This document shows, piece by piece, positions 3,667 to 10,108 of a stretch of 10,149 bases of DNA. Below the pieces are notes generated by a model. It was not told the DNA's origin. It did no database searches and worked only from the letters and a program-made list of their open reading frames with translations. How positions within the stretch are numbered: the stretch's first letter is position 1; each line of letters starts with the position of its first letter. Origin of the DNA: Christensenellaceae bacterium (GTDB lineage Bacteria; Bacillota; Clostridia; Christensenellales; DTU072); NCBI GenBank assembly GCA_031260775.1, contig JAISKW010000110.1:1-10149 (forward strand), read 5' to 3'. The translations under genes were made by a program, and so were the position numbers.

Positions 3667-4436
3667 TAATCCTTGTGCCTCGGGAACTGTTCCTTATACG
3701 GCGCGGCATCTATATCTAACCTTTCAAAAATAATGTTGTCGCAGTTATTTTCCTCTGCACGGGTGTAGAACTCATCGTTTTTGATGGTCCAGCTAAGCAG
3801 TTTCAGATTAAAGCCTTTTACGGCGATTTCAATTCGTTTGCTCGGTAAAAAATCGATATGATACGCCAAAAAGTCGGGACGGACTACGCAAAGAACCCAG
3901 TAGGGGTTTACCAATTTATACAGTATACGGAGCGGGAAATTCTTCGCCTTTTCGCCCAAAATGCCGCGGCGAACCTCCGGCGCGTTTTCGGTAAACCAGT
4001 GAACGCTGTAGGGGTTAAAGGACTGAATTGTCACCCACGGCTTGCCTTTAATTTGCGAATAGAGCATTTTTTCAAGGGCAAAATCGGTAGGACGGCCGGC
4101 TTTAATTTCGCAAAGAATATCGACTTTGCCGTCAACAAGTTCGAGTAAATCCTCAAACAGCGGAACTTTTTCGCCGTTCGGGAGGAAGTATTCGGGTTTT
4201 TCGAGGTCTTTACTTGAGAGTTTTTGAATTTTAACCCGCTTGCCCGTCACCCTTTTCATATTGCTGTCGTGGAAAATGGCAAGCTTACCGTCGGTCAGTA
4301 AACGCACGTCGGTTTCGATGTTAAAGCCCTTTTCGATAGCAAGCTTGAACGCCTGCATAGAATTTTCGATAACGTTTACGTTCCCGTCGTGCAGCCCCCT
4401 GTGGGCAATCGGCATTGTATAAAATCTCTCCCCCAT
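3666..4436 (-). CDS. glycerophosphodiester phosphodiesterase family protein (GDPD, GlpQ/UgpQ-like)
   Basis: PIAHRGLHDG, E(T)DVRLLTDGKLAIFHD and the overall GP-PDE TIM-barrel signature are present. Stop overlaps the rlmH start. The true start may be the second ATG at 4415 (MPIAHRG), because GDPDs usually begin a few residues before the HRG motif. Neither ATG has a well-spaced SD. Confidence 0.8.
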   Translation of the reverse strand: MGERFYTMPIAHRGLHDGNVNVIENSMQAFKLAIEKGFNIETDVRLLTDGKLAIFHDSNMKRVTGKRVKIQKLSSKDLEKPEYFLPNGEKVPLFEDLLELVDGKVDILCEIKAGRPTDFALEKMLYSQIKGKPWVTIQSFNPYSVHWFTENAPEVRRGILGEKAKNFPLRILYKLVNPYWVLCVVRPDFLAYHIDFLPSKRIEIAVKGFNLKLLSWTIKNDEFYTRAEENNCDNIIFERLDIDAAPYKEQFPRHKD

Positions 4437-7265: not shown

Positions 7266-7507
7266 TATAATTCCACCTCCACGATAGTCGCGTCGTCTTT
7301 ACGCACGGTTAGGCTATAGCCCCTGAGGATTAACTCCATCGGGTCGCCGAGAGGCGCGGTTTTACGAACCGTTACGACAACGCCTTTGGTTACGCCCAAA
7401 TCCATAACGCGCCGCCTGAGCGCGCCCTCGCCGTTTACTTTCGTAACCGTTGCGGATTGACCTACTTTTAACTCGTCTAATCTCATTTGTTTGCCGTCAT
7501 ACCACAT
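7265..7507 (-). CDS. feoA: ferrous iron transport protein A (FeoA, SH3-like)
   Basis: 80 aa. MRLDELKVGQSATVTKV...RRRVMDLGVTKGVVVTVRKTAPLGDPMELILRGYSLTVRKDDA is the typical FeoA pattern. The start could be the second Met (MRLDELK); neither has a clear SD. Confidence 0.9.
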   Translation of the reverse strand: MWYDGKQMRLDELKVGQSATVTKVNGEGALRRRVMDLGVTKGVVVTVRKTAPLGDPMELILRGYSLTVRKDDATIVEVEL

Positions 7508-7511
7508 TATA

Positions 7512-7559
7512 TGTTAGCTTTGACTAACAATATGTTAGCATAGGCTAACACGCTGTCAA
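7512..7559 (-). promoter_or_regulatory. feoA promoter (TTGACA -35 at 7554-7559; TAACAT -10 at 7532-7537, read on the minus strand) overlapped by two TGTTAG-N6-CTAACA palindromic operators
   Basis: O1 is TGTTAGCATAGGCTAACA (7533-7550), spanning the spacer and -10. O2 is TGTTAGCTTTGACTAACA (7512-7529), covering +1 to the 5'UTR. Centres are 21 bp apart. The -35 is an exact consensus hexamer with a 16-bp spacer. Confidence 0.6.
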
Positions 7560-7606
7560 ATAGGCAGATTTTGAGAATGAAACGATAGAGTTACAACAAT
7601 CCAAAT

Positions 7607-7637
7607 GTAACCAAAAAACTAATTATTCGTTTATAAT
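7607..7637 (+). promoter_or_regulatory. candidate promoter(s) of the ECF sigma gene: ECF-like GTAACC-N16-CGTT, plus a TATAAT at 7632-7637
   Basis: AAC at 7609-7611 and CGT at 7628-7630 are spaced 16 nt apart (an ECF -35/-10 like pattern, hence possibly autoregulated). A perfect sigma-A-type TATAAT lies 11 nt before ATG 7649. Confidence 0.3.
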
Positions 7638-7648
7638 AGTGACAGCTA

Positions 7649-8140
7649 ATGAAGGAAAATATGGACAACGAGCTGGACGCACTGTTCAGAGAGCACTACA
7701 ATCCCTTAAAATTGTATATATGGTCGTTGTGTAAAAACATTCATCTTGCCGAAGATGTGGCGTGCGATGCGTTTTATAAAGCCTTGAAACTTCCGTCTTT
7801 CACCGACGGTAACTTCAAGTATTGGTTGTACAAAACCGCACGGAACCGCCTAATCGACCTCATAAGACGGAAAAAGTTCGAGGGGGAAATGCCCGAGCAT
7901 TCCGAGCCGGTTTCGCCCGAAAATTCGCCCGAAAACGAGCTGATTAAGAACGAAAGATACCGCGCACTCTACCACGCACTCGACTTATTAAACGAGGCGC
8001 AACGCGAGGTACTAATGCTTATGTACTTTCAGGATATGAGTATTATTGAAATCTCCGCCCTGACGGGTAAAACCGAAGCCAACGTCAAAGTATTGCTGCA
8101 CAGAGGCAGAGAGGAATTGAAAAAACTTTTGAATACATAA
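7649..8140 (+). CDS. RNA polymerase sigma factor, sigma-70 family, ECF subfamily
   Basis: Region 2 (LYIWSLCKNIHLAEDVACDAFYKAL, WLYKTARNRLIDLIRRKK) and region 4 (LNEAQREVLMLMYFQDMSIIEISALTGKTEANVKVLLHRGREELKKLL) are present. The start may instead be ATG 7661, which has GAAGGA 4 nt upstream. Confidence 0.85.
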   Translation: MKENMDNELDALFREHYNPLKLYIWSLCKNIHLAEDVACDAFYKALKLPSFTDGNFKYWLYKTARNRLIDLIRRKKFEGEMPEHSEPVSPENSPENELIKNERYRALYHALDLLNEAQREVLMLMYFQDMSIIEISALTGKTEANVKVLLHRGREELKKLLNT

Positions 8141-8160
8141 AATAATAAGGAACCATAAAT

Positions 8161-8706
8161 ATGGACGATTTTAAGACATTATACGAAAAATACATCAAGG
8201 GCACGGCGAGTGAAGAGGAAATCCGCTATGTTGAGGACACTCTTTCTAAGAGCGATTCGGTGTTTGCCGAAAACAGCTCCGAGGACAAATTACACGCGCT
8301 TGACGAGGAAAAACTCACTCATGCCGACACGGCAACCATTGAAAACATCAAAAAACGTATCAAGAAAAAAACCTTAACCGCGACTCTTTTAACCTCCTTG
8401 GCGATTTTAGGCGTGGCAACCGCAATAGTACTCGGCAGCGTCTTCGGCGCGGCGGGGTATCATGCAAAGAAAAATTCCTTGATTGACGAGGACGAAGCCG
8501 AGTCTATCGCACGCGCTTTCGCCGAGGAAGAATGCGGTGTTGACGATTCGTACGAAACCGATTACGTCCACCAACGCTTAGTCTTTAGAGGCGCGCTCAA
8601 AAACACCTATTACGAGCATGTTGTCGAGTTTGAATACAACAACCGCGAGGTTGTGATTATCATCGACGGAATCAGCGGCGAAGCCACTCTGCACAAGGCG
8701 GAATAA
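8161..8706 (+). CDS. putative anti-sigma factor: cytoplasmic N-terminal domain, one TM helix, extracytoplasmic PepSY-like domain
   Basis: The 20-nt gap after the sigma gene implies an operon. N-terminus MDDFKTLYEKYIKGTASEEEIRYVEDTLSKSD has the helical anti-sigma N-domain pattern but no His/Cys zinc ligands. TM helix LLTSLAILGVATAIVLGSVFGAAG. C-terminus IDEDEAESIARAFAEEECGV...YYEHVVEFEYNNREVVIIIDGISGEATL fits the PepSY fold pattern. Confidence 0.65.
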   Translation: MDDFKTLYEKYIKGTASEEEIRYVEDTLSKSDSVFAENSSEDKLHALDEEKLTHADTATIENIKKRIKKKTLTATLLTSLAILGVATAIVLGSVFGAAGYHAKKNSLIDEDEAESIARAFAEEECGVDDSYETDYVHQRLVFRGALKNTYYEHVVEFEYNNREVVIIIDGISGEATLHKAE

Positions 8707-8764
8707 GCAATTTGCGGTTATCCGCGCGGTGCCGTCAAGCCGGCAAAAACATTAATTATTAGAA

Positions 8765-10108
8765 ATGGCAAAAATATATAAAAAAGCCGAAATGTGGGAC
8801 AAGATGCAAGACATCATGGAAAAATGGAACGACCACATGACCCACGGCTACTTCGAATTAGACAGAAATATTAACTCCGACAACCTCAAAATGGCTTGCG
8901 AATATGTGGCGGATTGCGTCCCGATATTAAAAGCAAAATGGTATTCGGGCGTTTTTCATGCCCGGTGGATTGAAACCGATACTAAGGCGAATGAGTTGCC
9001 GATTTTCGAGTTTAGGGAGACCAAAAACAAATTATCCGCAGAGGGCAACCTCCTTTTAACCCGCATTGTAAACAAGAAAAACGGCCCGCAATTCAGGGTA
9101 ACTCTCCTAAGAAACGGCTCGAAAGATGCGGTTTTGTTCGTAACGAACCACCAAATTATGGACGGCGCGGACTTAAAGCTTTTTTATAAGTCCATTGCAG
9201 ACGTATACTCCGCGCTCGAAAAGGGGCTTCCTGCCGAGACCGTTCAAATCAAAAACGGAGAGCGCGGCATCGAACAGCTGTATAAAAACTTCACCGACGC
9301 CGAAAAGGCGAAGCTAAAAAAGATGATTTCCTACTCCAAGGCGCAAAAGAAGAAGATTGAGGTGCGCTTTGCAAAGAGTAAATTCACCGACCGTTTGCCG
9401 AAGCTTAACAAGGCGATTTTGCCGGCAGAGACGTTTCTTAAACTTAAATCGAACTGCAAAATTTTGGGCGTAACGCTTAACGACATTATTTTGGCGCAGT
9501 ACCTGAGGACGGTTTACGAGTTCGGCGACCTGCCCGATGATGCGCGTTTGGGCGTGCCGAATATGATAAATATGCGCAAGTACCTCAACGGCGAGGAGAG
9601 CGGTGGTTTCTCTAACCTTACCTCTATGGTCGTGCCCGCGCTCGCAAAGCTCGGCGCGGAGCTGCCCGAAACTGCCGTGCGCTGCCGCTTTGCTATGGAC
9701 AGGCTCAAAAAGGACTATCCCGGCTTTCACGGTTGGTCGCTTTTACAAGACGTTTACCATTACGCGCCGCACTCGCTTGCGAAATTCCTCATAGGAACCT
9801 TCTTCAAAAACCCGCTTGTCGGAATTTCAAACATCGGCATCATCGGCGACAAGGAAGTTGAGTTCGGCAATGCCGAAATAATCGACGCGTATATGACCGG
9901 TTCGATTAAACACCCTCCGTACATTCAGCTTGCATTAACGACCTTCAAAAACAAAATCACCTTTACCATGGCGGAGTTCGGCACGATGCAAGACTACATT
10001 CTTATCGATTGGATTTTGGATAGCATTGTCGACGGCTTAACCGCCTTCGCTAACGCTCACATCACCGAAGAACTCGCCAAAGCTGCCTACGAAAACGCTA
10101 TCCGTTAA
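8765..10108 (+). CDS. HxxxD-motif acyltransferase, WS/DGAT- or condensation-domain-like (CoA-dependent acyltransferase superfamily)
   Basis: 447 aa. HQIMDG at residues 129-134 within FRVTLLRNGSKDAVLFVTNHQIMDGADLKLF parallels the WS/DGAT HHxxxDG context. The C-terminal segment VGISNIGIIGD...AEIIDAYMTGSIKHPPYIQLALTTFKNKITFTM parallels the WS/DGAT ISNVPGP...QALNITxxSYNG region. No SD precedes ATG 8765; later in-frame Mets at residues 10, 14 and 18 are alternatives. Confidence 0.6.
   Translation: MAKIYKKAEMWDKMQDIMEKWNDHMTHGYFELDRNINSDNLKMACEYVADCVPILKAKWYSGVFHARWIETDTKANELPIFEFRETKNKLSAEGNLLLTRIVNKKNGPQFRVTLLRNGSKDAVLFVTNHQIMDGADLKLFYKSIADVYSALEKGLPAETVQIKNGERGIEQLYKNFTDAEKAKLKKMISYSKAQKKKIEVRFAKSKFTDRLPKLNKAILPAETFLKLKSNCKILGVTLNDIILAQYLRTVYEFGDLPDDARLGVPNMINMRKYLNGEESGGFSNLTSMVVPALAKLGAELPETAVRCRFAMDRLKKDYPGFHGWSLLQDVYHYAPHSLAKFLIGTFFKNPLVGISNIGIIGDKEVEFGNAEIIDAYMTGSIKHPPYIQLALTTFKNKITFTMAEFGTMQDYILIDWILDSIVDGLTAFANAHITEELAKAAYENAIR

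Follow-up and report, generated by a model that had tools for sequence, protein, structure and literature searches.

An extracytoplasmic function sigma/anti-sigma pair and a condensation-fold enzyme as a candidate operon in a Christensenellaceae bacterium

At one end of a contig from a Christensenellaceae metagenome-assembled genome (MAG; locus-tag prefix LBN25), three genes on the + strand encode a sigma factor of the extracytoplasmic function (ECF) type, a candidate membrane anti-sigma factor and a soluble enzyme of the condensation superfamily, which raises the question of whether the first two control the third or merely lie next to it. The window, that is the whole stretch of DNA analysed here, corresponds to the complete contig of 10,149 bp, and the location of its features is given in Table 1. 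A preliminary description made from the sequence alone had proposed an envelope-responsive ECF switch that turns on an acyltransferase with an HxxxDG motif. Re-reading of the window and profile searches confirmed the three open reading frames (ORFs) and their domain calls, together with the gaps of 20 nucleotides (nt) between the sigma gene and that of the 181-amino-acid (aa) protein and of 58 nt between the latter and the 447-aa gene. Overall, we consider it reasonably probable that the locus is an autoregulated ECF sigma/anti-sigma pair that has captured the gene of a 447-aa condensation-fold enzyme into its operon.

This account is first based on a motif, GTAACC-N15/16-CGTyT, which is conserved upstream of the sigma operons with the flanks tGTAACCttt ... 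gCGTyTatt..GTGaAA and which, its -35 element being of the AAC type and its -10 element of the CGT type, represents a candidate autoregulatory promoter. It occurs ahead of the homologous sigma operons in L089, L092, L093, L095, L097, L099, L102-108 and L110 and, where the operon is headed by a gene encoding a protein with multiple PepSY repeats, it stands before that gene. In the window, the copy ahead of the sigma gene is the sole match of this kind on the + strand. The same motif was also found before many homologues of the enzyme that have no sigma gene in their 6-kb flanks. These homologues fall into two subfamilies, that of the window (18 sequences, 40-48% identity to the window protein) and a second one linked to a membrane protein (ca. 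29% identity). Before the enzyme homologues, the motif is located on the coding strand at a fixed distance from the enzyme start, -929 to -1064 nt, where it immediately precedes the gene of a polytopic membrane protein (ca. 281 aa) that stands before the enzyme gene. When the pattern was defined on the sigma loci and sigma-linked loci were excluded from the count, it was detected on the same strand and at most 250 nt upstream in 18 of the 46 membrane-protein genes that precede enzyme homologues in Christensenellales, versus only 2 matches in the remaining 1.66 Mb, both strands included. The corresponding Poisson P of ca. 3e-48 overstates the independence of these data, the sequences being related, yet the positional specificity is clear, and the motif-bearing membrane-protein operons represent at least 10 groups or lineages at 70% identity. 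The shared ECF-type promoter thus appears to connect, in trans, the sigma family with that of the enzyme; it rescues the regulatory hypothesis and lends support to the proposal of an HxxxD-type enzyme under the command of an ECF switch.

A further indication comes from the region that separates the 447-aa gene from the sigma pair. In the window's subfamily, each of the other 17 members has its gene preceded at close range by a strongly conserved sigma-A promoter, TTGACA-N17-(g)TATATAAT-nTGnTTAGATA, and this element is absent before the window gene at up to 3 mismatches. Scanning of the + strand of the spacer revealed neither a sigma-70-like promoter nor a terminator, a relaxed motif scan before the 447-aa gene detected no second ECF motif, and the spacer RNA was predicted to fold no more stably than shuffled sequence (z=0.05). 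Because the gene lacks the sigma-A promoter of its subfamily and the gap contains neither promoter nor terminator, its transcription is likely to start at the ECF promoter and to read through. A promoter swap would explain this most simply, the 447-aa gene having lost its own promoter to become the third cistron of the ECF operon. The sigma-A element itself was found before both enzyme subfamilies in many genomes, with all 35 matches on the coding strand, and is located ca. 40-90 nt upstream of enzyme or membrane-protein genes in L001-L049 (e.g. L016 5925, L018 1949, L032 4995). In some loci a 10-nt inverted repeat, GTTTATGTAT ... ATACATAAAC, lies on either side of its -10 box and suggests that a repressor has its operator there.

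The product of the first gene is an ECF (group 4) sigma-70 factor which, as judged from profile matches, is composed of the sigma-2 and sigma-4 domains only, as expected in this group of factors of ca. 160-200 aa. It matches Pfam Sigma70_r2 (1.6e-11, residues 12-76) and Sigma70_r4_2 (6.7e-14, residues 105-157) and scores 93.9 bits against the ECF superfamily model TIGR02937 (cutoff 42.9), in agreement with the earlier call. It falls below every NCBIfam subfamily or equivalog cutoff, the nearest being SigM with 111.6 bits vs 147.95. Translation probably starts at the ATG at 7661 rather than at 7649, because an AAGGAA ribosome-binding site occurs at 7652-7657 ahead of this codon and the NCBI product has 159 aa; a start at 7649 would be nearly leaderless if transcription begins near 7640. 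In two of the homologous loci, a second ECF sigma gene with an RsgI_M-type anti-sigma gene was observed just upstream of the pair with the PepSY-type anti-sigma (L115 1572-3240, L116 841-2509).

The 181-aa protein is a candidate anti-sigma factor by its position and architecture. It displays a basic stretch, KKRIKKK (residues 64-70), followed by a lone hydrophobic segment (L72-Y100, nt 8374-8460) and by a PepSY-like ectodomain (residues 108-174, nt 8482-8682). Its homologues, which were gathered via the neighbours of sigma homologues and by a metagenome scan with alignment, have in common a LYEKYxxGTAxEEEIxYVE segment, one transmembrane segment and a C-terminal domain. In their alignment, conservation of the N-terminus is limited to residues 1-30, which contain this segment, and no Cys/His zinc motif is found in the N-terminus. 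Class I anti-sigma domains (ASD/ZAS) form an N-terminal bundle of ca. 80-90 aa with three or four helices and carry HxxxCxxC in the zinc-binding subclass. The 'anti-sigmaE' model NF010501 matched the 181-aa protein with an E-value of 0.028 only, the anti-sigma profile had no meaningful match among PDB sequences, and a word-indexed search with the 181-aa protein retrieved only itself. Wherever a sigma locus extends far enough to include both genes, a homologue of the anti-sigma comes right after the sigma, and the two genes overlap or are separated by a few nt, the 20-nt gap of the window being the widest.

That this protein is a single-pass membrane anti-sigma with a PepSY-like sensor, as first described, agrees with its architecture, but it does not reach the gathering threshold of Pfam PepSY (PF03413; E=0.12, 13.1 bits vs 24). 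Two homologues match the same model at the same region (2.4e-4 and 0.027, corresponding to 21.8 and 15.2 bits, both below 24), and positions 130-180 of the family profile match single repeats of the multi-PepSY proteins (best ca. 2e-5), these neighbouring four-repeat proteins themselves matching Pfam PepSY at 2.2e-31. "PepSY-like" is a fair description of the ectodomain, short of formal membership in the Pfam family. A helix plus four strands would be expected of a PepSY domain; a single-sequence AlphaFold2 (AF2) model, weak overall with a predicted local distance difference test score (pLDDT) of 58.9, has two N-terminal helices and, in its C-terminal part, helix H110-125 and then four strands, at the modest pLDDT of ca. 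70-77. A 404-aa variant of the anti-sigma occurs in L110 (1093-2307) and L111 (6998-8212), in which the N-terminal segment and the transmembrane segment are kept (profile positions 2-93) and the ectodomain is larger and different; this suggests modular swapping of sensors among these anti-sigmas.

The 447-aa protein can be confidently assigned, on the basis of its predicted structure, to the condensation superfamily as a stand-alone member with a pseudo-dimeric two-lobe fold. Its score against Pfam Condensation (PF00668) is 32.6 bits, narrowly above the gathering score of 30.6. An alignment of 33 homologues (27-48% identity) shows no variation at N128, D133 and G134, and at least 90% of the sequences retain H129, so that the motif reads N128-H129-xxx-D133-G134: the first His of the canonical HHxxxDG is replaced by an invariant Asn and the catalytic second His is kept. 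The AF2 model built on this alignment has a pLDDT of 92.4 and a predicted template modelling score (pTM) of 0.91, with the motif located after strand 120-128 and before helix 134-152. Of the 251 Foldseek matches in the PDB at E<=1e-3, all of the 50 listed have a condensation/CAT-like fold; AzeD (8s6l) comes first with a template modelling score (TM-score) of 0.77, the epimerisation domains of TycB3 and GrsA and the TRI3 protein are also among them, and PapA5 (1q9j) reaches a TM-score of 0.70-0.72, normalised to the target. The two-lobe fold foreseen in the preliminary description is thus right, and H129 would lie at the lobe interface, to judge from its secondary-structure context. By inspection, it has no transmembrane segment or signal sequence.

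The framing in terms of WS/DGAT and actinobacterial lipids was not upheld. Membership of WS/DGAT was rejected (TIGR02946, 12.1 bits vs 309.95; WS_DGAT_C, PF06974, 14.2 vs 20.7), as was that of PapA5, for which NF006787 gave no match with the window protein and 36 bits vs 396 with the other subfamily. No polyketide synthase (PKS) or MmpL genes were found in the loci inspected, and some of the homologues are labelled "WS/DGAT domain-containing" by NCBI or precomputed Pfam annotation. Among PDB sequences, the family profile is nearest to epimerisation and condensation domains of non-ribosomal peptide synthetases (NRPS), with bacitracin synthase 3 at 1.5e-17 and the epimerisation domains of GrsA and TycA at ca. 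1e-9 to 1e-10. The family comprises 1,016 clusters (50% identity) at E<=1e-30, mostly in MAGs of Christensenellales and other Clostridia and often in several copies per genome; no characterised member was found.

Much of the comparative evidence weighs against the operon and would fit a chance neighbourhood, in which the sigma and anti-sigma genes form a self-contained unit and the 447-aa gene is expressed independently, by a weak unrecognised promoter or by constitutive read-through, with no tie to the ECF signal. The contiguous trio occurs nowhere else among the 14 sigma/anti-sigma lineages (derived from three look-ups and a metagenome scan, and grouped by eye on identity and synteny) and ca. 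96 enzyme homologues examined, and it is thus not conserved as a unit, an outcome that the preliminary description itself had named as refuting its proposal. In each of the 14 lineages, the sigma gene has that of a ca. 180-aa anti-sigma as its neighbour; 12 of the lineages have no enzyme of the family nearby and carry unrelated downstream genes, which differ even between the near-identical L089 and L090. An enzyme homologue lies downstream of the pair only in the window and in the clade formed by L060, L080 and L082. When the ORFs of 88 homologue-bearing loci were searched with a sigma hidden Markov model, L060 and L080 were the only ones with a sigma gene at 6 kb or less, and no sigma gene lies near any of the other 17 members of the subfamily of the window protein. 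The four closest enzyme homologues (46-48% identity) have their own sigma-A promoter and are preceded by the gene of a thiamine pyrophosphokinase or by one for tRNA modification (tRNA_Me_trans), and others adjoin LuxS. L082, which is closely related to L060 and L080, retains just the C-terminal part of the anti-sigma (3823-4143), with no sigma gene detected; despite this decay, its ECF-type promoter, its membrane protein and the two enzyme paralogues are intact. The enzymes found elsewhere behind ECF promoters belong to the other subfamily and come with the membrane-protein partner that is absent from the window, and their motif could be read by a paralogous sigma, since these genomes can hold several ECF sigma factors, as seen in L115 and L116. 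Further, no Shine-Dalgarno sequence is evident ahead of the 447-aa gene. Finally, the window lineage is a singleton with no close relative in the collections searched, where the best identities are 48% for the sigma, 32% for the anti-sigma and 48% for the enzyme; because close relatives are unsampled, conservation of the arrangement cannot be shown. Set against these points, two independent lineages of the 14 have a family member on the same strand within 2 kb downstream, an occurrence with a chance of ca. 2e-4 if, as we estimate, there are 2-4 family copies per ca. 2-Mb genome. In L060 and L080, which represent a distant clade, a multi-PepSY gene is followed by the sigma and anti-sigma genes and, after a copy of the ECF-type promoter, by those of the membrane protein and of two enzyme paralogues. 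This linkage, the ECF promoter shared with many family operons and the loss in the window of a sigma-A promoter otherwise universal in the subfamily indicate that the adjacency is probably not fortuitous despite its lack of conservation, and the gap without a terminator argues in the same direction. We therefore regard a chance neighbourhood, which would reduce the locus to an ordinary ECF pair beside an unrelated hypothetical enzyme, as unlikely, albeit worth serious consideration.

Another explanation agrees with the captured operon as far as regulation is concerned and differs in what the enzyme does, namely other chemistry, such as epimerisation or dehydration of a carrier-bound or small-molecule substrate, or a non-catalytic role as a scaffold. 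The structural neighbours speak for it and count against an acyl transfer: AzeD, the top Foldseek match, is called a dehydratase in its PDB entry, a 2026 preprint refers to "dehydrating condensation family proteins", and the best PDB sequence matches are NRPS epimerisation domains. The Asn found at the first His of the motif is a further point in its favour. Against such chemistry stand the lack of any carrier protein, adenylation domain or NRPS gene near the loci inspected and the weak matches of the family to the AATase, WS_DGAT_C and PapA5 models, and an alpha/beta-hydrolase esterase encoded between paralogues in ECF-driven operons would rather fit ester chemistry; we find this explanation distinctly unlikely. 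As for a chimeric MAG contig that would join the sigma pair to an unrelated gene, it could be suspected from the source, a 10-kb contig of metagenome origin whose end lies 41 nt beyond the gene, and from the absence of a second copy of the arrangement. The junction, however, has no repeat, N-run or sharp break in composition (GC 0.44-0.46) and its short gap is typical of operons, which makes such an artefact very improbable.

According to the captured-operon model, the sigma would be held by the short cytoplasmic N-terminal segment of the anti-sigma, whose extracytoplasmic PepSY-like domain would receive an envelope signal, and it would be released by regulated proteolysis, by analogy with RsiW and RsiV. 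The freed sigma would then use GTAACC-N15-CGTTT (7607-7632) to transcribe its own gene and that of the anti-sigma. Transcription would continue across the 58-nt spacer into the 447-aa gene, as is expected of a spacer with neither terminator nor promoter. The predicted cytoplasmic enzyme, with its intact HxxxDG centre, would most likely transfer an acyl or aminoacyl group to a hydroxyl or amine, the acceptor being an envelope precursor or a xenobiotic. In this lineage, a member of a subfamily that sigma-A normally drives would have shed its promoter and come, by capture, to belong to the sigma operon; the other subfamily is very often located behind the same ECF-type promoter, together with the polytopic membrane protein and sometimes with an alpha/beta-hydrolase esterase.

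In L030 (ca. 7300-8400) and L053 (4996-5910), the operon behind the ECF promoter has the gene of such a hydrolase (BD-FAE/Abhydrolase_3, 1.8e-28) in the middle, with an enzyme paralogue on either side, which hints at paired acylation and deacylation. More broadly, because the same promoter type occurs before related enzymes in many relatives, the data point to an undescribed stress regulon of Christensenellales. In this regulon, a PepSY-sensing anti-sigma/ECF pair would switch on lineage-expanded condensation-fold enzymes via GTAACC-N15-CGTTT, along with the membrane protein and the esterase, and thereby reversibly acylate an envelope lipid or polymer or an incoming toxic compound, the window being its most compact form. 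We put this forward tentatively, as a possibility that is still open to considerable doubt.

Other ORFs and regulators were observed around these loci. ORFs of 78-80 aa occur downstream of the anti-sigma gene in L090 (7217-7459), L091 (7252-7494), L113 (7252-7494) and L115 (4698-4934); the 80-aa ORFs of L090 and L091 contain a PepSY-like YEFYVDxxTGEV and have their own copy of the ECF-type motif ahead, as in L100. These small PepSY-like ORFs are probably members of the regulon. The membrane protein of the other subfamily has a weak perm_prefix_1 N-terminus, and in L041, L072, L073, L026, L050 and L067 it is encoded, with the enzyme, directly after a gene whose product, by eye, has a PadR-like C-terminal end. 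One operon would thus be wired to three alternative regulators depending on the lineage, namely the ECF promoter, the sigma-A promoter with its conserved element, and PadR.

Table 1. Features of the trio and its surroundings in the 10,149-bp window
Feature	Position	Strand	Remarks
Candidate autoregulatory ECF-type promoter	7607..7632	+	-35 GTAACC at 7607-7612, 15-nt spacer, -10 CGTTT at 7628-7632
ECF (group 4) sigma factor	7661..8140	+	ORF opens at 7649 (7649-8140, 163 aa); likely start ATG 7661; Pfam and TIGR02937 matches
Single-pass anti-sigma candidate, 181 aa	8161..8706	+	Conserved cytoplasmic N-terminus, transmembrane segment, PepSY-like ectodomain
58-nt spacer	8707..8764	+	Scans without terminator, sigma-A promoter or ECF motif
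Stand-alone condensation-superfamily (HxxxD) enzyme, 447 aa	8765..10108	+	
Codons of the HxxxDG motif H129-Q-I-M-D133-G134	9149..9166	+	Invariant N128 just before
Strong Shine-Dalgarno-like run GGGAGGGGGAGGAA	10126..10139	+	10 nt short of the contig end

The contig stops 41 nt past the 447-aa gene and, because of the Shine-Dalgarno-like run GGGAGGGGGAGGAA close to its end, a further co-directional gene probably follows, in which case the operon may exceed three genes. An Rfam search of the window gave no match. On the other side of the sigma gene, a tandem pair of imperfectly palindromic 21-nt boxes, ATATGTTAGCTTTGACTAACA and ATATGTTAGCATAGGCTAACA, is found at 7509-7550 immediately upstream of a divergent operon composed of feoA, feoB and a FeoB-associated gene; the boxes may be an operator of the DtxR/IdeR metal-regulator type, which they resemble.

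It is well known that envelope-modifying enzymes can be switched on by ECF sigma/anti-sigma modules. In B. subtilis, sigma-M, -X, -V and -W constitute envelope-stress modules with membrane anti-sigmas, and sigma-V induces OatA and the dlt operon. The window resembles these modules by its small two-domain sigma, its single-pass anti-sigma and its "TGTAAC/GAAC ... CGT" type of autoregulatory promoter, and its output may plausibly acylate or otherwise modify the envelope. It differs from them by a sigma that scores best with SigM and remains below the NCBIfam subfamily cutoffs, by an anti-sigma N-terminus with ca. 30 conserved residues, no Zn motif and a PepSY-like sensor, and by an output that is a soluble condensation-fold enzyme instead of a membrane O-acetyltransferase or the Dlt machinery. 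This enzyme shares with PapA5 (1q9j), AzeD (8s6l), TRI3 (3fp0) and the NRPS condensation and epimerisation domains a two-lobe CAT-like fold (TM-score 0.64-0.77), an HxxxDG motif located after a beta-strand of the N-lobe and a size of ca. 420-450 aa. In contrast with these structures, to which it is 10-16% identical, it has N-H in place of H-H and no PKS, NRPS or carrier partner nearby, and its family is mainly confined to MAGs of Clostridia and Christensenellales. With WS/DGAT (TIGR02946, WS_DGAT_C), it has in common only the HxxxD superfamily. The likeness to PadR-regulated "permease-prefix" membrane proteins exists only in the wider family, since the window contains neither such a protein nor a PadR gene. 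The preliminary description knew of no ECF regulon of this composition and none turned up in the literature searched, in which no PepSY-like anti-sigma family, stand-alone condensation-fold ECF output or promoter of this type was described. Nothing relevant was found in the literature on COG4908 or on ECF factors together with wax ester synthase, and the main text of the ECF reclassification paper makes no mention of PepSY, acyltransferase or condensation.

These data tie an enzyme family without a characterised member to a defined promoter and to a sigma/anti-sigma pair, and thus provide an experimental handle on it. To our knowledge, almost nothing is known of the envelope biology and stress signalling of Christensenellaceae, a heritable group of gut bacteria that has been linked to host health. 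If the proposed link is true, a PepSY-type sensor would join the repertoire of anti-sigma factors and a soluble condensation-fold enzyme would join the outputs of ECF sigma factors.

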